The notes below the pieces were generated by a model. That model had not been told where the DNA came from, made no database searches, and was given only the letters and a program-made list of their open reading frames with translations. The translations under genes and the position numbers were made by a program. A stretch of DNA of 64,000 bases from contig JAUIEF010000002.1 of the NCBI GenBank assembly GCA_030428785.1, positions 18,892 to 82,891 on the forward strand, in the 5' to 3' direction. Below are positions 2,244-13,323 of the stretch, piece after piece. The stretch's first letter is position 1, and the number at the start of each line of letters is the position of its first letter. This DNA comes from a bacterium (GTDB taxonomy: Bacteria; Planctomycetota; B15-G4).

Positions 2244-4262
2244 CTACGGCGTGATCGCCGTCACCGCGTTCGTGAGCGTGAGCCCCGCGGGCACGGTGCC
2301 GTCCTGCACGATGAACTGCAGCCAGAACTCCACGCCGGTGCCGACGCTCACGGGCCACGTGAGCGACTGGCTCCACGCGCCCTCGGCGTCCGTCGCGCGC
2401 AGGAGCTGCACCGCGGGCGGGTTCGCGTGGAGCGTGCCGCCGAGCACATCGAGGGGCACGGACGTGAACGACAGCCACGCGAGCATGAGCGCGTTGCCCG
2501 GCGCGTCCGTCACGTGCAGCGTGAGCGGGTCGCCCGCCTCGAGCGTGCCGATCGCGTCGAGCGCGGGCACGCCGCCGACACCCGGCGCGGCGCCGCCCAG
2601 GAAGGTCCACGGCGACGCGAGGCCGACGTTCTCGTACCAGCCGGCACCGACACCGAAGTCCCGCGCGCCGCCCAGCACGTCGAGGTCGCCGTCCCGGTCG
2701 AGGTCGCCCAGACCCAGCGCGTCGTCCCGATCGCCGGCGACGGTGAGCACGGCCTGCGGGGCCGCCGCGAAGCCGCCGAGGCCGTCGGTGTTCTCGAACA
2801 GGAGCAGGTCGAACGACGGCAGGGCCAGCGCGATGACGTCGAGGTCGCCGTCGCGGTCGAGGTCGGCGAGCTCGACCTGCCGGAGCGTCCCCTCGACGAC
2901 CGTCTGCGGCGCGCCGAACGTGCCGAGCCCGTCGAGGTTCTCGAGCCACCCGAGCCGCGCACCGCCGAACACGAGGTCGCGGTCACCGTCGCCGTCGACG
3001 TCGCCCGCGCGCACCGACTGGACGACCTCCGCACCGACGTCCAGGGAGTGCGCCGTCGGGAACGCGCCGGCCCCGTCGTTCGCGAACCACACGAGCCGCT
3101 CGGAGAGGTCGCCGCCGACCACGGCGTCGAGGTCGCCGTCGCCGTCGAGGTCCGCCACGTCGAGACCGTAGGCGTCCTTCGGTCCGCCGTGCCACGGTGT
3201 CTCGGCGCCGAAGCCCGCGCCGTCCGCGAAGTGCACGCGCAGCGACGGCGGCGCGTCGTACGCGAGCACCGCGTCGGCGAGCCCGTCACCGTCCAGGTCG
3301 GCGAGTGTCGTGTCGCGCACCGTCGCCGGGTCGAGCTGCAGCCATTCGACCTCCTGGAACGCCCCCTGGCCGTCGACGTTCTCCGCCCACCACGCGCGGC
3401 CGGCGAACACGTAGAGCAGGTCGAGGTCGCCGTCACCGTCGATGTCGCCGAGGTCCGGGTCGGTCGCGGTCGCGCCGTCGTGGATCGTCTCCGGCTGGCC
3501 GAAGGTCCCCGCCCCGTCGAGGTTGCGGAGGAGATACGCGCCCTCCGGGATCTGCGCCGGCGACGAGGGGGCGTTGGCCGCGACGAGGATGTCGACGTCG
3601 TCGTCACCGTCCACGTCGCCGGTCGCGAACGCCGACGGCGGCAGGATGCCCGGGAGGTCGCGACGCGTGGAGAACTGCGCGGAGATCGACACGAGGCCCG
3701 GCTTGGTGATCGTCGCGGGCTGCGTCCCCGCGAAGGCCGTGAGCGTCACGTCGTAGTCGCCGTATCCGGTGTAGGTGTGCGTCGGGTGCTGCGCCGTCGA
3801 GGTCCCGCCGTCGCCGAAGTCCCAGAGCCAGGACGAGACCGGGTCGCCGGTCGTCGTGTTGGTGAACGACACCTCGACCTGGAGGAAGCCGCTCGTCGGC
3901 GAGGCGACGAAGTCCGGCGTGACGGACGCCGGCGACACGGTGACGAGGCCGGTCTTCACCTCGGAGTCCGCGCCGCCGCCCTGGCCGAGCACGCCGAGCG
4001 ACACGGTGTAGGTGCCCGGCGTGTCGTAGACGTGCACCGGGTGCTGCGCGAAGCCCTGCGTGCCGTCGCCGAAGTCCCACTGCCACGCGACGGGCGTCCC
4101 GCCGGTCGTCTGGTCGGTGAACGACACGACGAGCGGCGGCAGGCCGCTCGTGGGCGTCGCGCCGAAGTCGGCGGTGATCTGCGCGCCCACGGGCGACGCG
4201 ACGAACAGCGCGACCACGAGCGCGGGGACGAGACGGGTCGGACGGACGGCGATCGAGCGCAT
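2244..4262 (-). CDS. secreted protein: 2 PKD domains + FG-GAP/VCBS repeat beta-propeller + recurrent C-terminal domain
   Basis: ATG at 4262 with GGAGGA 6 nt upstream; signal peptide MRSIAVRPTRLVPALVVALFVASPVGAQ. PKD motifs (WDFGDG, HxYxxxGxYxVTL) occur twice. There are about 7 DxDGDGxxD FG-GAP-type repeats. The C-terminus reads LAWLSFTSVPLDVLGGTLHANPP...FWLQFIVQDGTVPAGLTLTNAVTAITP. Confidence 0.85.
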   Translation of the reverse strand: MRSIAVRPTRLVPALVVALFVASPVGAQITADFGATPTSGLPPLVVSFTDQTTGGTPVAWQWDFGDGTQGFAQHPVHVYDTPGTYTVSLGVLGQGGGADSEVKTGLVTVSPASVTPDFVASPTSGFLQVEVSFTNTTTGDPVSSWLWDFGDGGTSTAQHPTHTYTGYGDYDVTLTAFAGTQPATITKPGLVSISAQFSTRRDLPGILPPSAFATGDVDGDDDVDILVAANAPSSPAQIPEGAYLLRNLDGAGTFGQPETIHDGATATDPDLGDIDGDGDLDLLYVFAGRAWWAENVDGQGAFQEVEWLQLDPATVRDTTLADLDGDGLADAVLAYDAPPSLRVHFADGAGFGAETPWHGGPKDAYGLDVADLDGDGDLDAVVGGDLSERLVWFANDGAGAFPTAHSLDVGAEVVQSVRAGDVDGDGDRDLVFGGARLGWLENLDGLGTFGAPQTVVEGTLRQVELADLDRDGDLDVIALALPSFDLLLFENTDGLGGFAAAPQAVLTVAGDRDDALGLGDLDRDGDLDVLGGARDFGVGAGWYENVGLASPWTFLGGAAPGVGGVPALDAIGTLEAGDPLTLHVTDAPGNALMLAWLSFTSVPLDVLGGTLHANPPAVQLLRATDAEGAWSQSLTWPVSVGTGVEFWLQFIVQDGTVPAGLTLTNAVTAITP

Positions 4263-6535: not shown

Positions 6536-9127
6536 CTACTTCACGTACCCGAGCGCCCGCAGCTGCTCGAGGTCCGCCTCCGAGAGGTCGGCGAGATCGT
6601 CGCCCTCGACGCGCTGCGCCTCGGCCGAGGACTTCCAGCGCTCGAGCTCGGCGGCCAGCCGCTCGACGACCTCGGGGTGCTCGTCCGCGACGTCCTCGAG
6701 GTTGAGCGGGTCGGCGCCGTGGTCGTAGAGCTCGAACTCCGCGCGCCCCTCGGGCCGGATGACGTGACGCACGAGCCGCCAGCGGCCGTTCACGATGGAG
6801 AAGCTCTCCCAGTCCTCCGCCGGATCCGGCACGCGGTCCTCCGCGAGCCGCACCTCCGAGAACGCGGGCTGCGGACGCCAGCCGAGCGCGGCCGGGTCGT
6901 CGGGCGACGCGAGCAGCGGGAGCAGGCTGCGCCCCTGCGCGCGCTCCGGCACGGGCAGCCGGCACAGGTCGAGCAGCGTCGGCGCGAGGTCGAGCGACTG
7001 CGTCGTCTCCTCGACGACGGTCGGCGGCACGACGCCCGGCCACCGCACGATCATCGGCACGTTCGTCATCTCGCCGTACACCGTGTCGCCGTGCCAGTGC
7101 CGCCCGTGCTCGAGGAACTCCTCGCCGTGGTCCGCGACGACCGCGACGACGACGCGGTCCGCGAGCCCGTACTCCTCGAGCCGCTCCATGACGCGTCCGA
7201 TCTCCGCGTCCATGGCGCGGATGGACGCGTCGTACCAGTCCTTCTCCGTGCGCGTGAACGCGTCCGGGTCGACGCCCGCCTCCTGCAGCTCCGTGAGCCA
7301 CGGCAGGCCGCGCGCCTTGCGCGCCGACTCCTCCATGACCTCGCGAGCCTGCTCGACGCGCTCCTCGTGCGCGGCCTTCGCGCCCGGCTCCGCCCAGCGC
7401 GTGTCCCACGGGCGGCGCGGCTCGAACGGGCTGTGCGGATCGAACACGTGCAGCCGCGCGTAGAACGGCACGTCGTGGTGGCGGCCGAGCCAGTCGAGGA
7501 ATCGGTCGACGAACGGCCGCGCCGTCTTGCTGCCGACGTCGCCCTCGAGCGAGCTGCGCTCGTGCATGACCTCGAGGCCCTGGTGCAGGTTCGAGAGCTT
7601 GCCGGTGAACGGCACGGACGAGGTCGCGAAGGTCGCGTACCCCGCGTCGCGGAAGCACTCGGCGAGCGTCTGCACGGACGCGGGCAGCCGGTCCGGCGTG
7701 TCGACCATCCCGTGCGTCGACGGGTAGAGCGACGTGAGGATCGACCCGACGGACACCTTGGTCCACGCGCCCTGGCTGATGTTGTCGGCGAAGCGCGCGC
7801 CCTCGGCGGCGAGGCGCGTGAGCACGGGCGCCGTCTCGCGCTCGTAGCCCCACGCGTCGAGGTGGTCGCGACGCAGCGTGTCCGTGACGATGAGGATGAC
7901 GCCGCGCGGCGCGTCCGGCCCGCCGAGCGCGGCGCGTGAAGGCGACGGCGCGCCGAGGTCCGGCGCCGCGCCGCGCGAGCGCACGACCGGAGAGCCCCAG
8001 AGGCCGATCGCGCCGCTCGACTCCGCGGCGAGCGCGAGCCCGAGCGTCACGCGCTGCCCGGCCCATGGCGCGAGGTCGATCGTCACGGGCTCCCAGCGCC
8101 CGGACGTCGTGAGCGTGCGCAGGAGCAGCGTGCGGTCGACGGGCGCGTCCGTGCCGCCGAGCCTGAGGTCGACGCGGAAGGTCGCGGGCCCCTCCTCCAC
8201 CGTGCCGAGCTCGAGGTCGAGCCACGGTTCGGCGGGCAGGTCCACGGTGAGCAGCACCTCCTCCGGCGAGCGCGCGACGATCGCCTCGCGGTAGATCTCG
8301 GAGCACGGCTGCCACGACACGCCGGACGGGATCGTCGCGAGGTGCTCGCGCCGCGACACGAGGCGCACGGACTCGAGCGCCAGCTCGTCGCCGGGCTCGA
8401 CGTCCCACACGCGCAGCATGACGTGGTGCACGTCGGCCACGGGGATCGACGGCAGGAACGAGGAGTCGGCCGTCGTGAGCGTGTAGGTCCGCACCTCGTC
8501 GCCGGGCTGCAGGTCGACGGTGAGCGCGCCCCGCGAGGAGTCCTCGGCGCGCGCGAGGAAGCGCTCCAGCTCCAGCCGCTCCGCGTCGTCGAAGAGGAAG
8601 CCGAGCTTGCCGCCGGACGGGACGCGCAGCCGCACCTCGACGGCGTGCAGGAGGTCGTCCTCCTCCATGCCCTCGGGGCGCACGGTGTGGAGGATGGGCA
8701 TCTCGCCGACGGTGCCGACGAGCCGGCCGTCACGCACGGCGAGGTCCTCGACGCCGGAGAGCGCGTGCCAGCCGTGCACGGCGACGGGCGGCGCGGCGCC
8801 GTCGGCGAGCTCGAAGAGCGGGTGGGCGTCGTCGGCGGCGTCGTCCGGCGCGTCGTCGGGCGCGTCGACGGCGGGAGGCGCCGGGTCGGTCGGGTCATCC
8901 GCGGACGTGTCGGCGGGAGCGCCGTCGTCGTCCGCGGCGGGCGGCGGGCCGTCGAAGCGCCAGCTCGTCGAGGGCGGGAGCTCGTCGCTCACGGGCGGCG
9001 TGCCGCGCACCTCGGCCGACGCGAAGCGGTCGACGAGGCGGATCGCGGCGGGACCGGACGGCGCGGCCGGGTCGCCGCACGCCGAGAGCAGCAGTCCGAC
9101 GACGAGCGCGGTGGCGAGGCGGTGCAT
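6536..9127 (-). CDS. lipoprotein: ~400-aa N-terminal region of unknown function + alkaline-phosphatase-superfamily (sulfatase-fold) catalytic domain with Thr at the nucleophile position
   Basis: ATG at 9127 with GGAGGAG upstream; lipobox LLSAC. GVILIVTDTLRRDHL...RFADNISQGAWTKVSVGSILTSLYPSTHG aligns with sulfatase RFTDF..C(T)[10 protein letters not shown], but with Thr in place of the formylglycine Cys. There is an acidic Pro/Asp-rich linker near the N-terminus. Confidence 0.75.
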   Translation of the reverse strand: MHRLATALVVGLLLSACGDPAAPSGPAAIRLVDRFASAEVRGTPPVSDELPPSTSWRFDGPPPAADDDGAPADTSADDPTDPAPPAVDAPDDAPDDAADDAHPLFELADGAAPPVAVHGWHALSGVEDLAVRDGRLVGTVGEMPILHTVRPEGMEEDDLLHAVEVRLRVPSGGKLGFLFDDAERLELERFLARAEDSSRGALTVDLQPGDEVRTYTLTTADSSFLPSIPVADVHHVMLRVWDVEPGDELALESVRLVSRREHLATIPSGVSWQPCSEIYREAIVARSPEEVLLTVDLPAEPWLDLELGTVEEGPATFRVDLRLGGTDAPVDRTLLLRTLTTSGRWEPVTIDLAPWAGQRVTLGLALAAESSGAIGLWGSPVVRSRGAAPDLGAPSPSRAALGGPDAPRGVILIVTDTLRRDHLDAWGYERETAPVLTRLAAEGARFADNISQGAWTKVSVGSILTSLYPSTHGMVDTPDRLPASVQTLAECFRDAGYATFATSSVPFTGKLSNLHQGLEVMHERSSLEGDVGSKTARPFVDRFLDWLGRHHDVPFYARLHVFDPHSPFEPRRPWDTRWAEPGAKAAHEERVEQAREVMEESARKARGLPWLTELQEAGVDPDAFTRTEKDWYDASIRAMDAEIGRVMERLEEYGLADRVVVAVVADHGEEFLEHGRHWHGDTVYGEMTNVPMIVRWPGVVPPTVVEETTQSLDLAPTLLDLCRLPVPERAQGRSLLPLLASPDDPAALGWRPQPAFSEVRLAEDRVPDPAEDWESFSIVNGRWRLVRHVIRPEGRAEFELYDHGADPLNLEDVADEHPEVVERLAAELERWKSSAEAQRVEGDDLADLSEADLEQLRALGYVK

Positions 9128-9380
9128 GGACGGCTCCTCCGGGGCACGGGCGCGCGCATGGTACGGCAACGGCCGGTGACGCCGCCCGCGCCGTCGCCGG
9201 GGAGCCGTCGCGGGGCGGGGCGGGCTCGCCCGGGGTCACGCCGCGCGGGTGTCGCGAGGCGGTTCCGGACGTAAGGACCGCCGTCGCCGCGCGACCCAGG
9301 ACACGTCCCCGCGACACCGTCCGCGACGCGATCCGACGCGACGACGGTGCCGCTCCCCCGTGTCCGAGGAGACCGGAACG

Positions 9381-10031
9381 ATGACGAACACCCTGCGCAC
9401 GATCCTCGGCGGGAGCGTCCTGCTCGCCGCCGCCTGCGGCATGCTCGGCGCCGCGCCCGCCGCCCCGCAGTCCGCCATGGGCGCCCGCCCCGCGGCCGCC
9501 GCCGCGCGCCCCGCGGACGCCCTGCTCGCCTTCCGCGACGACGGCAGCCTCGAGCGTCCGCGCGGCTACCGCCGCTGGATCTTCGTCGGCGCGCCGCTCA
9601 CGCCGGACGACATGAACGACGGCCACGCCGCGTTCCCCGAGTTCCACAGCGTCTACATCGACCCCGCGAGCTACGACCACTACAAGCGCACCGGCGACTT
9701 CCGCGACGGCACCGTGCTGCTCAAGGAGCTCAGCAGCGTCGGCACGAAGGCGTCGACGAGCGGCAAGGGGTACTTCATGGGCGAGATCACCGGCCTCGAG
9801 GCGGCGGTGAAGGACAGCGAGCGCTTCCCCGACGAGCCCGGCAACTGGGCGTACTTCCGGTTCACGGACGAGGACGGCGGGCCGATCCACCGCGTCGCCG
9901 AGCCGCTGCCCGCGGCGTCGTGCGCGGCCTGCCACACCGCGTCCGCCGAGCAGGACTCCGTGTTCACGCAGCACTACCCGATGCTGCGCGAGGCGCGCGG
10001 CTACGGCGCCGGCGAGCCCGAGGACCGCTGA
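9381..10031 (+). CDS. cytochrome P460 / cytochrome c'-beta family protein (periplasmic, single CXXCH near C-terminus)
   Basis: ATG at 9381 with GAGGAG upstream; signal peptide. Motifs YRRWIFVG, VYIDPASYDHYKRTGDFRDGTVLLKE, NWAYFRF and CAACHTASAEQDSVFTQHYP fit the P460-family pattern. Confidence 0.7.
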   Translation: MTNTLRTILGGSVLLAAACGMLGAAPAAPQSAMGARPAAAAARPADALLAFRDDGSLERPRGYRRWIFVGAPLTPDDMNDGHAAFPEFHSVYIDPASYDHYKRTGDFRDGTVLLKELSSVGTKASTSGKGYFMGEITGLEAAVKDSERFPDEPGNWAYFRFTDEDGGPIHRVAEPLPAASCAACHTASAEQDSVFTQHYPMLREARGYGAGEPEDR

Positions 10032-10060
10032 CCCGGACGGCGACGAGCCGGAGCCCCGCC

Positions 10061-10936
10061 ATGATCCCCGTCGACCTCGCCGAGGTGCTCGAGTCGCTCG
10101 CCGACCCGCGCATGCGGCACGCGGCCGTCGTGCACCTGCCGGTGGCGGCCGGCGTGCTGGGGCTCCCGCTCGTCACGGCCTGGCTGCTCACGCGCGGCCG
10201 GTCGTCGGCGCTGCGCGGGTGCATCGTCGTCCTCTACGGGTCGACGGTGCTCGCCGCGCTCGTCGCCGCGGACAGCGGCGACGCGGCGCGGGCTCTCGCG
10301 GGCGGCGCGGGCGTCGAGGCGCTCGCGGTCGTCGCGGAGCACGCCGCGTGGGCGCGCTGGGTGTGGGCGACGGCGCTCGTCCCCGTGCTCGGCGCGCTCG
10401 CGTGGCGGTCGTCGCGCTGCCGCCGGTGGTCGAGGCTCGTCGTGGGCGCCGGCGCGCTCGCCTGCGCCGCGCACACGGGGCTCGTCGGGCACCTCGGCGG
10501 GACCGCCGTCTACGCGCACGGTGTCGGCATGCCGCGCGCGCTCGCGGGCGACCTCGACGGTCCCGCGAACCGTGCCGCGGCCGCGGGCGGGTCGCTCGCC
10601 GCGCACGCCGCGACGTCGTCCGTCGACCAGTCGACCGCGGAGACGCCCGTGACGTTCCCGCGCGACGTGCGCCCGATCCTCGAGACGTCGTGCACCGGCT
10701 GCCACGCGCCGCCCGCGCCCGCGAGCGGCCTCGACCTCACGTCGCTCGACGCGCTGCTCCGCGGCGGACGGCGCGGACCGGCCGTCGTCCCGGGCGACGC
10801 GGAGGACAGCCGGCTCTGGCGCGCCGCCGCCTGGACGGACGACGAGCTCCGCATGCCGCCCGAGGGCGACCGGCTCACGGAGGCGCGGCTCGACACGCTG
10901 CGCCGCTGGATCGAGGACGGCGCGCCCGCGGAGTGA
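10061..10936 (+). CDS. membrane-anchored c-type cytochrome with PSCyt1 (planctomycete cytochrome c) C-terminal domain
   Basis: Four predicted N-terminal TM helices with His residues. C-terminal CTGCHAPPAPASGLDLTSLDALLRGGRRGPAVVPGDAEDSRLW...MPPEGDRLTEARLDTLRRWIEDGAP matches the PSCyt1 signature. Confidence 0.75.
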   Translation: MIPVDLAEVLESLADPRMRHAAVVHLPVAAGVLGLPLVTAWLLTRGRSSALRGCIVVLYGSTVLAALVAADSGDAARALAGGAGVEALAVVAEHAAWARWVWATALVPVLGALAWRSSRCRRWSRLVVGAGALACAAHTGLVGHLGGTAVYAHGVGMPRALAGDLDGPANRAAAAGGSLAAHAATSSVDQSTAETPVTFPRDVRPILETSCTGCHAPPAPASGLDLTSLDALLRGGRRGPAVVPGDAEDSRLWRAAAWTDDELRMPPEGDRLTEARLDTLRRWIEDGAPAE

Positions 10937-11093
10937 GCGCGGGGGAGCGGCGCTCGTGGTCCGACGCGGGCCGACGTCGGTGCGGGCCGCGGCACCGCCC
11001 GCCGGGAGGTCGTCCGGTCCGCCCCAACAGACGCCGGGCCTCCTCGTAACCCGGGCCGCGCCCCGGGGGGCGCCGACCCGGAGGAGGACCCGC

Positions 11094-11441
11094 ATGATCC
11101 CGTCGCCGAACCGACCCGCGGTGCGCCGCGCGTTCACCGCCCTCGCCCTGTCCGCGCTCGTCGCGCTCCCGGCCTGCGCGCTCGGCGCGTCCGGCGAGCG
11201 CGCGATGACCGACGCCGAGCTCCGCACGCACGACGAGCGGATCTGCCCGTCGCTCCAGGCGTCCACCATGTGCGAGGGCGTGTTCGCCGTGCCGTCCGAG
11301 GACGACCCGTCGCGGCACCGCCTGCGCTTCGTCGACGGCCAGGTCTCGCGCAACGACTCCTGCATGATCCGGCTCGGCAACCGGCTCAACCCGAAGGTCC
11401 CGCCGATGTACGTGAACGGCGAGCCCGTCGGCTTCTGCTGA
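11094..11441 (+). CDS. small lipoprotein whose YHS-like domain is cut by an in-frame TGA
   Basis: ATG at 11094 with GGAGGAGG upstream; lipobox ALPAC. C-terminal DSCMIRLGNRLNPKVPPMYVNGEPVGFC fits the first half of a YHS motif (DPVCGM...YkGktYYFC), then TGA. Confidence 0.55.
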   Translation: MIPSPNRPAVRRAFTALALSALVALPACALGASGERAMTDAELRTHDERICPSLQASTMCEGVFAVPSEDDPSRHRLRFVDGQVSRNDSCMIRLGNRLNPKVPPMYVNGEPVGFC

Positions 11442-11807
11442 GTGCCCTGCCCCGACGTCTTCGTGCAGGACGTCCCCGCCTCGCTCGCCCGCAAGGGCAT
11501 GACCTGGGCCTGCTACATGGACCCGTCGCGCCCGGCCGCCCTCGACCCGGCGCTCGCCGTGCGCGTGAACCACGAGACCTACCTCTTCGCCGACTCCGCC
11601 GCGCGCGAGCGCTTCCGCGAGGACGTCGTGCGCTACTGCGGCCTGCTCACCGACCCCGTGTCCAAGCGTCGCTTCCGGCCGACGCAGGACTCGCCCGGCG
11701 CGACGGACCCCGAGACGGACGTCGACTACTGGTTCGAGGACGAGGAGACGCGCGACGCCTTCGTCGCGGACCCCGCGGCGTACCGGCTGCCGGGGTGGCG
11801 GATGTAG
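11442..11807 (+). CDS. in-frame continuation of the lipoprotein after the TGA: rest of YHS motif 1 plus a second, Cys-less YHS-like domain
   Basis: Same reading frame as 11094-11441. VPCPDVFVQDVP completes F-C-[TGA]-x-x-C-x-x-x-F (canonical FCSEECKEKF). A second YHS-like unit follows: ACYMDPS...NHETYLFADSAARERFREDVVRY. Confidence 0.5.
   Translation: MPCPDVFVQDVPASLARKGMTWACYMDPSRPAALDPALAVRVNHETYLFADSAARERFREDVVRYCGLLTDPVSKRRFRPTQDSPGATDPETDVDYWFEDEETRDAFVADPAAYRLPGWRM
11454..11474 (+). other. stem-loop beginning 12 nt downstream of the in-frame TGA (SECIS-like position)
   Basis: GACGUC-uucgugcag-GACGUC gives a 6-bp perfect stem with a 9-nt loop containing GU. Spacing to the UGA resembles bacterial SECIS elements. 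Confidence 0.3.
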
Positions 11808-13068: not shown

Positions 13069-13323
13069 TCAGGAGACCCGGCGCAGGAGCTTGCGGACGG
13101 GCGCCTCCGATCGGGGGTAGTCCGGCAGGCGGTCGCCGGTGAGCGTCCAGAGTTCGCGCGTCAGCTCCGCCACCATGGCGAGCCGCTCCTCCGCCGTCGT
13201 CGTGGCGCTCAGGTCGTCGGACGGTTCTTCGCCGAGCGCAAAGCTCCGGACGGGCCACATCCGGCGCCGGGACGCCCGGCGATCCGCGTCGTCACGAGGC
13301 GTCTCTCCCGGGCCGTGCGGCAT
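13069..13323 (-). CDS. small hypothetical protein, possible partner of the NTase
   Basis: 84-aa ORF 7 nt upstream of the NTase start on the same strand. No recognisable domain. Start uncertain (13323 or 13260). Confidence 0.4.
   Translation of the reverse strand: MPHGPGETPRDDADRRASRRRMWPVRSFALGEEPSDDLSATTTAEERLAMVAELTRELWTLTGDRLPDYPRSEAPVRKLLRRVS

Follow-up and report, generated by a model that had tools for sequence, protein, structure and literature searches.

Selenoproteins with a YHS domain have been on record since 2007. As set out by Zhang & Gladyshev (PMC1976440), they were first found in symbionts of Olavius algarvensis; such a protein was also seen in the GOS data (PMC2398784), and NCBIfam covers the family with a model, NF041384, YHS domain-containing (seleno)protein, its selenocysteine (Sec, U) motif being GxU (PMC13188914). 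Here we describe a locus on a planctomycete contig (JAUIEF010000002.1, assembly GCA_030428785.1), in a stretch of 64,000 nucleotides that is referred to as the window, where a reading frame on the plus strand (11094-11807) is interrupted by a single TGA. Judged from comparative sequence evidence, it is very probably a genuine selenoprotein gene. We hold with scarcely less assurance that it would be one gene for an exported lipoprotein of 237 residues, in which the UGA at 11439-11441 would be decoded as Sec. An earlier note on this DNA offered selenocysteine and a fresh pseudogene as options and stated that YHS domains with Sec had not been described; that statement was mistaken, given the family reported in PMC1976440 and now covered by NF041384.

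The window protein resembles NF041384 members in that both would be bacterial YHS selenoproteins with cysteine (Cys)-containing homologues and a selenocysteine insertion sequence (SECIS) hairpin downstream of the UGA. The differences are considerable. The cut-off of NF041384 is 70 bits; the window protein, read with Cys in place of U, reaches 18.8, and four of its Cys homologues reach 12.7-30.6. The weak match is limited to the Cys-less C-terminal YHS unit of the window protein (aa 208-231) and does not cover the Sec site. Where the known family has G-x-U, the window has G-F-C-U-V-P-C, with Gly three residues before Sec rather than two, and its architecture of a lipoprotein signal followed by three tandem units is another point of difference. 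At E<=10, the remaining NCBIfam models gave no match to the window protein. A C-U-x-x-C YHS/TRASH lipoprotein is likewise absent from the 119 families and subfamilies of the May 2026 catalogue, the BSepDB list and the 2007 figures lying outside this comparison. The window family appears to be distinct from the one known YHS selenoprotein family.

The layout of the locus, in window positions, is as follows.

11080-11087, plus strand: Shine-Dalgarno-like sequence GGAGGAGG, 6 nt 5' of the ATG, read directly from the sequence
11094-11807, plus strand: predicted selenoprotein gene, complete, 237 codons including the UGA read as Sec; ATG at 11094, TAG at 11805-11807
11094-11177, plus strand: signal peptide with lipobox L-P-A-C (aa 25-28; Cys28 at 11175-11177), read from the sequence
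11319-11477, plus strand: unit 1, a Cys-rich TRASH/YHS-like knuckle (aa 76-128) with C90, C115, U116 and C119
11361-11363, 11436-11438 and 11448-11450, plus strand: the Cys codons of unit 1, for C90, C115 and C119
11439-11441, plus strand: UGA, putative Sec codon, residue 116, assigned from column conservation
11454-11474, plus strand: SECIS-type hairpin, stem 11454-11461/11467-11474, loop CGUGC at 11462-11466
11541-11642, plus strand: unit 2, a degenerate, Cys-less YHS/TRASH-like unit (aa 150-183, …VNHETYLFADSAARERF…), which aligns with the second unit of distant homologues
11646-11795, plus strand: unit 3, a Cys-less YHS domain (aa 185-234, LTDPVSKRRFRP…DYWFEDEETRDAFVADPAAYRLPG)

The frame is broken once, by the TGA in the context …GGC TTC TGC TGA GTG CCC TGC CCC…, and translation of the locus bears out the earlier description of two open reading frames (ORFs) in one frame with nothing but a TGA between them: the ORF at 11094-11441 and the GTG-initiated ORF at 11442-11807 lie on the same strand, and the TGA is their sole separator. 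The read-through product has 237 residues and runs …YVNGEPVGFC-U-VPCPDVFVQD… across the break, matching the read-through that had been claimed. A six-frame scan of the 64 kb asked for a TGA flanked on each side by at least 50 stop-free codons, with a G+C content at third codon positions (GC3) above 0.85 and at second positions (GC2) below 0.62. It returned a single site, the TGA at 11439-11441, where GC3 is 1.00 on both sides and GC2 about 0.5, so that the arrangement goes beyond coincidence. TGA is the usual stop in the window, terminating 16 of its 22 confident ORFs; the genetic code is therefore standard, and a global reassignment of UGA is ruled out.

The TGA recurs at the identical column (…PVGFC-TGA-xxC…) in 54 further distinct sequences. 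When proteins were searched with the read-through product, the matches fell into three classes: uninterrupted proteins of about 190-206 aa, which carry Cys at the TGA column (…PVGFC-C-TTCP…; P0006, P0008, P0009, P0011, P0012 and P0017) or, in P0004, Ser; proteins of about 130-177 aa whose first residues are exactly MPCPDVFVQD…; and one protein whose C-terminus is exactly …PPMYVNGEPVGFC. Translating through the contigs of these matches revealed the same in-frame TGA in 8 further distinct sequences from metagenomes or metagenome-assembled genomes (MAGs), each with a lipoprotein signal and the conserved N-terminal part. Locus L011 has an extra homopolymer indel, and its contig name is tagged '2x'.

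What orthologues carry at the TGA column, a check that the earlier note had asked for, was addressed by a pattern scan (…PVGFC) of one genome per GTDB species, which returned 54 loci from at least 8 phyla. The Sec column is TGA in 47 of them and TGC in 7; as the pattern favours close relatives of the query, this 47:7 ratio is a biased estimate. The closest relatives are Planctomycetota MAGs with 51-69% identity, and other carriers belong to Eisenbacteria, Krumholzibacteriota, Latescibacterota, Zixibacteria, Gemmatimonadota, Acidobacteriota, Ignavibacteriales and Ca. Udaeobacter. When 1.84 billion cluster representatives were searched with a profile, 1786 relatives emerged at E<=1e-3. Among the best 150 of these 1786, most are fragments of 85-150 aa whose first residue lies no more than 8 codons past the Sec column; these fragments are the downstream halves of split gene calls. 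Their names in the sources are 'hypothetical protein' (e.g. MBL8805008.1) or 'YHS domain-containing protein' and never selenoprotein, and the genes of the family are annotated as two ORFs by gene callers and in GenBank/IMG. The comparison points to a widespread family whose predicted Sec form is predominant among the recovered genomes.

A lone in-frame stop in an otherwise intact frame, seen in one sequence, resembles a recent mutation, and the TGA of the window genome might on that ground be a nonsense mutation, the mark of a fresh pseudogene, or an assembly error. We give this explanation next to no credence, because the TGA recurs across sequences: the 54 other distinct sequences come from independent samples, assemblers and phyla, both halves of the gene are conserved as protein, and the contigs, with 35-69% identity, are not copies of one erroneous sequence. 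The pseudogene option of the earlier note is excluded on these grounds.

The uninterrupted homologues show which residue stands at the TGA column. About 30 uninterrupted representatives were read, and about 80% of them have Cys at the Sec column (F-C-C-x-x-C), a few having Ser or Arg. In an alignment of 8 Sec and 7 Cys/Ser forms (A1), C90, C115 and C119 are invariant in all 15 rows, column 116 is Sec, Cys or, once, Ser, and the pattern is C-x24-C-[U/C]-x2-C. The Cys-form homologues (e.g. P0006, P0008, P0009, P0011 and P0019; 'YHS domain-containing protein' in IMG) have the same length, the three units and the Cys triad, are exported, and are 35-44% identical to the window protein over the whole mature protein. 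They differ from it in that column 116 is TGC, no hairpin follows, and the signal peptide is of the ordinary type and lacks a lipobox. Rare departures at the Sec/Cys column are Ser in P0163 (otherwise of Planctomycete type, GFC-S-VPCPDVFVQDVP), P0032, P0037 and P0004, and Arg in P0029; in the Sec-form locus L021 (position 1488) it is the last motif Cys that is missing (U-S-S-H-V). These departures could be decaying copies or sequencing errors.

We then consider the RNA downstream of the UGA. A hairpin, GACGUCUU-CGUGC-AGGACGUC (11454-11474), starts 12 nt past the UGA and has a stem of 8 bp and a loop of 5 nt. Folded alone it has a free energy of -8.7 kcal/mol, the distance from UGA to loop is 20 nt, and G and U occupy loop positions 2-3. 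The consensus for bacterial SECIS elements (bSECIS), taken from the bSECISearch model, comprises an apical loop of 3-9 nt with a G at one of its two initial positions, the next base mostly being G or U, a stem of 4-16 bp, a UGA-to-loop distance of 16-37 nt, and a minimum free energy (MFE) of -7.5 kcal/mol or lower (PMC13188914); the window hairpin agrees with this consensus on all 4 points. Like that of the prototype, E. coli fdhF, it lies within the coding region just past the UGA, and the two sequences are unrelated.

Stability alone is no evidence in DNA of 75% GC, and Sec and Cys forms cannot be told apart by the MFE z-scores of whole segments; the case for the hairpin therefore rests on covariation and comparison. 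When 54 distinct Sec-form sequences are aligned, which needs no gaps (alignment A3), all six inner pairs of the hairpin are formed in 51 of the 54 rows, and double-sided changes occur at 5 of the 6 (GC/CG 11, GC/AU 10, UA/CG 12, CG/UA 2 and UA/CG 2). The covariation score is 0.353 as compared with 0.199 for shuffled alignments, none of 500 shuffles reaching 0.353, and control pairings in which the partner was slid by 1-3 columns score 0.035-0.137. The compensatory changes shift the protein in step, giving V…D (GUC…GAC), A…G (GCC…GGC) and T…G (ACC…GGU), and coordinated amino acid changes at paired codons are what selection on the RNA would produce. By contrast, the stem is complete in none of the 7 Cys-form genes, in which 48% of the positions are paired on average and there is no G-U or G-G loop. 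The family hairpin is very compact, with 6-8 bp and a CGUGC loop or GGN triloop. In L057 (10190-10243; alignment A3), the 3' arm of the usual hairpin is disrupted (CAGCAACC); this locus and L061 (10142-10195) can form an alternative stem of 8-10 bp (…UUGCGCGAAG / CUUCGUGCAA…) a few nt upstream, which is possibly a shifted SECIS.

Use of Sec in related genomes is indicated by a scan of the related loci for in-frame TGA codons, which uncovered further split genes of known selenoprotein families on Sec-form contigs. On that of the closest relative, L001 (Planctomycetota MAG OFTM9, JAJDER010000031.1), a minus-strand gene annotated as 2283-2849 and 2919-3404 is split by a TGA at locus position 2921. 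Its read-through product (…LLLSWASW-U-GCRADL…) scores 290 bits with NF041054 (ResA-like WAxxUGC motif protein), just under the cut-off of 300, and has the Pfam domains AhpC-TSA and TPR. In L010, the plus-strand ORFs 2371-2613 and 2632-2910 are separated by a TGA at 2611. The read-through product (…ALNGCVF-U-QDINA…; Pfam CMD) scores 305 bits with NF053654 (YciW-related (seleno)protein), just under the cut-off of 310, and from its sequence this is another probable selenoprotein gene that has been miscalled on a Sec-form contig. L061, from a Krumholzibacteriia MAG, has on its minus strand a TGA at 13083 within a gene for an exported AhpC/TSA-type protein (…NIMGYG-U-AQC…, a UxxC motif; AhpC-TSA, E 4.9e-9); no NCBIfam selenoprotein model matched this candidate. 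Complete sets of Sec-insertion genes have been reported in several Planctomycetes (PMC4807772). In L008, the family member has a DUF3179 gene (1792-2676) directly 5' of it; Sec forms are known for DUF3179 (PMC13188914), and this copy is uninterrupted.

Several observations weigh against decoding of the UGA as Sec. The window hairpin is short, and its stability (z = -0.75 in sequence of 75% GC) is unremarkable; across the family, 21 of 54 hairpins (about 40%) are weaker than -7.5 kcal/mol when folded in isolation. Ratios of nonsynonymous to synonymous substitution rates (dN/dS) on either side of the TGA range from 0.15 to 1.27 and are uninformative, because a GC3 near 100% depresses dS. The GTG directly after the TGA is a conceivable restart codon. 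Finally, neither the 64 kb window nor the related loci, about 0.9 Mb in all, yielded a selA, selB, selD or tRNA-Sec gene; the searches were confined to these sequences and say nothing on the remaining genome. In the same sequences, tblastn with E. coli SelA, SelB and SelD gave one weak GTPase match only; with ARAGORN the window gave no tRNA and the related loci gave tRNA-Leu alone, and an Rfam scan of the window at gathering thresholds gave no matches. The absence of unlinked Sec-machinery genes from a 64 kb stretch is unsurprising.

With the host's Sec machinery, if any, lying outside the 64 kb covered, it is conceivable that the host has lost this machinery and reads through the UGA with a near-cognate tRNA for Trp or Cys. 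The SECIS hairpin of the window is intact and has the same form as in the closest relatives, however, and related contigs bear other selenoprotein genes; moreover, TGC, the codon of the 7 Cys-form genomes, is what one would expect to see in lineages that lack Sec. Read-through without Sec is, in our judgement, highly improbable.

Equally slim are the prospects of the TGA being a true stop, by which a lipoprotein of 115 aa and a YHS protein of 121 aa restarting at the GTG would be translationally coupled products of a conserved split. Several relatives share with the window a GTG after the TGA, gene callers and the GenBank/IMG annotation likewise give two ORFs, and no Sec machinery is seen within the window. 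Most relatives, however, have no start codon after the TGA, the next triplet being ACG, ACC, AGC, CGC, GGC or another. The second product would have no signal peptide, and the invariant Cys triad would be divided between two polypeptides. Uninterrupted homologues with Cys exactly at the TGA column and a hairpin that covaries in TGA forms only also speak against two genes.

Cumulatively, the evidence forms a recoding signature with the following parts: 1) a conserved UGA; 2) a column shared by Sec and Cys; 3) a covarying hairpin; and 4) use of Sec in related genomes. The selenocysteine option of the earlier note is strongly supported by the conserved TGA, by Cys in homologues, and by the hairpin being confined to TGA forms. 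By analogy with characterised bacterial SECIS elements, we infer a SelB-dependent mechanism, in which the hairpin at 11454-11474 would recruit SelB·GTP·Sec-tRNA(Sec) to a ribosome at the UGA, and Sec would be inserted in place of termination. The product would begin its mature part with a TRASH/YHS-like knuckle that holds the cluster C90-x24-C115-U116-x2-C119; two YHS units that lack Cys would come next, and after export and lipidation at Cys28 it would be placed on the outer face of the membrane.

The putative lipobox signal, identified by eye, consists of a positively charged N-region, a hydrophobic core and L-P-A-C at aa 25-28; L-[TAP]-A-C or P-L-A-C is found at the equivalent place in 9 Planctomycete-type homologues. 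The lipoprotein call and the C-U-x-x-C reading of the earlier note hold.

Assignment of the protein to the YHS/TRASH modules is drawn from its homologues, there being no direct match of the window protein. Cys-form homologues pass the Pfam YHS model through their C-terminal unit 3, with 31.6-48.3 bits against a cut-off of 30.3. The matches of their unit 1 are sub-threshold, the lowest E values being 3e-6 for YHS and 4e-5 for two TRASH models. With these TRASH models (PF24273 and PF08394; cut-off 27 bits), the homologues reach 16-24 bits at best and the window sequence has no match. A three-Cys C…C-x3-C triad of TRASH type is present. The name TRASH is said to go back to Ettema et al. in 2003, with C-x19-22-C-x3-C reportedly as its signature, and the spacer of 24 residues in the window is longer. 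As compared with the YHS and TRASH modules (PF04945, PF24273 and PF08394; eL24 fold), the window protein further differs in the extra Sec/Cys beside the second Cys, in units 2 and 3 that lack Cys entirely, and in unit-1 matches that all lie below the Pfam cut-offs. In the Sec unit, the canonical YHS motif that had been claimed at the TGA can be recognised only remotely.

The claim of a second YHS-like unit with both Cys replaced found support in an alignment with the distant homologues P0110, P0138, P0139 and P0156. Because these keep F-C-C-x-x-C in their second unit as well as in the first, the second unit of the window (…YLFADSAARERF…), which has F-A-D-S-A-A there, can be regarded as a Cys-less copy. 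The four proteins form a more distant subfamily of about 170-180 aa with two consecutive F-C-C-x-x-C units, which suggests an ancestral protein with a pair of Cys-rich knuckles, the second of which the window family may have lost.

In the AlphaFold model of the Cys homologue P0008, units 2-3 have a predicted local distance difference test score (pLDDT) above 90, and unit 2 forms a high-confidence strand-strand-helix element. Sequence and fold searches of the PDB gave weak matches only, to YHS modules, eL24 and the copper chaperone NosL, and the model also has a weak structural match to the YHS-like repeats of adenylate kinase 9. The predicted architecture is that of a lipoprotein signal, a TRASH/YHS-like knuckle with Cys3+Sec, and two Cys-less YHS units.

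As to the function of the Cys3-Sec cluster, its sequence suggests a site for a soft metal ion (e.g. Cu, Zn, Cd or Hg) that would serve to traffic, buffer or sense the metal, Sec adding one more soft ligand to the three cysteines canonical for TRASH; we judge the chances for and against such a role to be evenly balanced. A soft-metal site is favoured because of the invariant TRASH-like Cys triad, the neighbouring Sec/Cys, export, and the occurrence of C-U dyads in selenoproteins that handle metals. The sub-threshold TRASH/YHS matches and the weak fold matches to eL24, NosL and YHS modules also speak for metal binding. C-U dyads are found in metal- or organometal-handling selenoproteins, namely HgcA, SaoL, SaoC, MbdU and the Csac_0668-type 2Fe-2S protein (PMC13188914, Table 1). 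In these, too, Sec comes right after Cys at a predicted metal-ligand position, whereas there is no kinship in sequence or fold, and their NCBIfam models miss the window protein at E<=10.

Three observations count against a metal site in a YHS-like knuckle. The Pfam YHS model (PF04945) has no match to the window protein at E<=1, nor to any of its three units taken singly at E<=10. Unit 1, the Cys-rich one, is modelled with moderate confidence in P0008 (pLDDT 65-73). Furthermore, U-x-x-C is a classic redox motif as well.

The last point leads to the main rival, a genuine selenoprotein in which U116-V-P-C119 would be an extracytoplasmic redox centre, a selenenylsulfide/selenol oxidoreductase and not a metal site. 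Redox proteins with UxxC or CxxU make up the majority of bacterial selenoproteins (PMC13188914), U-V-P-C resembles the thioredoxin-type CxxC, and the protein would be exported like DsbA/TlpA-type selenoproteins, one gene for which is present on the related contig L001. The fold does not appear to be of the thioredoxin type, however, the matches being to YHS/TRASH/eL24 zinc-knuckle-like modules; the invariant pattern is the three-Cys TRASH triad plus Sec/Cys and not a lone dithiol; and the fetched flanks hold no conserved redox partner gene. We regard a redox centre as rather unlikely, although it is a rival to be taken seriously, and return to the soft-metal site below.

The neighbours of the gene were considered because the earlier note had placed it in a periplasmic redox cluster. 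Both neighbours that were named are present, Cytochrome_P460 (E 8.7e-28) and PSCyt1 (E 3.1e-17), and the grouping is not conserved at other loci: the flanks fetched for the other family loci (up to 10 kb on each side) contain no homologue of either, and the redox cluster was dropped as an idea. In the window (9249-10936, plus strand), the Cytochrome_P460 gene (9249-10031) is closely followed by one for a membrane protein that has a PSCyt1 haem domain at its C-terminal end and matches DUF2231 weakly, and these genes look like a pair of their own. Their apparent cluster with the selenoprotein gene is most likely a coincidence of the window genome.

Clustering of neighbours over about 55 loci revealed lineage-specific synteny only, no neighbour being conserved across lineages. 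In the window (6536-9169, minus strand) as in the Planctomycetota MAG L013 (8226-9461), the family member has a sulfatase-like gene less than 2 kb away, the two copies being 30% identical over 449 aa; this adjacency looks like local synteny with no obvious functional link. A tRNA-Leu(UAA) gene a few kb upstream of the family member, found in L027, L035, L039, L046, L049, L055 and L059, mostly Eisenbacteria, is lineage-specific synteny only.

With regard to the family as a whole, we tentatively put forward a fuller reading, to which we assign somewhat less than an even chance. The locus would represent an uncatalogued selenoprotein family, widespread in Planctomycetota and in candidate phyla around Gemmatimonadota/Latescibacterota, in which Sec would be the direct fourth ligand of an exported TRASH-type Cys3 metal site. 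The protein may be a selenium-tuned periplasmic metal chaperone or sensor, with the Sec form as the norm.

For annotation, the finding means that public gene calls halve a whole gene family, and one profile combined with the hairpin would repair hundreds of entries. For the selenoproteome, the family would extend the use of Sec to poorly studied phyla and to a metal-knuckle fold that is not of the thioredoxin type. For chemistry, a Cys3-Sec site outside the cytoplasm would be a testable case of selenium tuning metal affinity or resistance to oxidation rather than catalysis, for which the natural Sec/Cys pairs of the family are ready-made controls.

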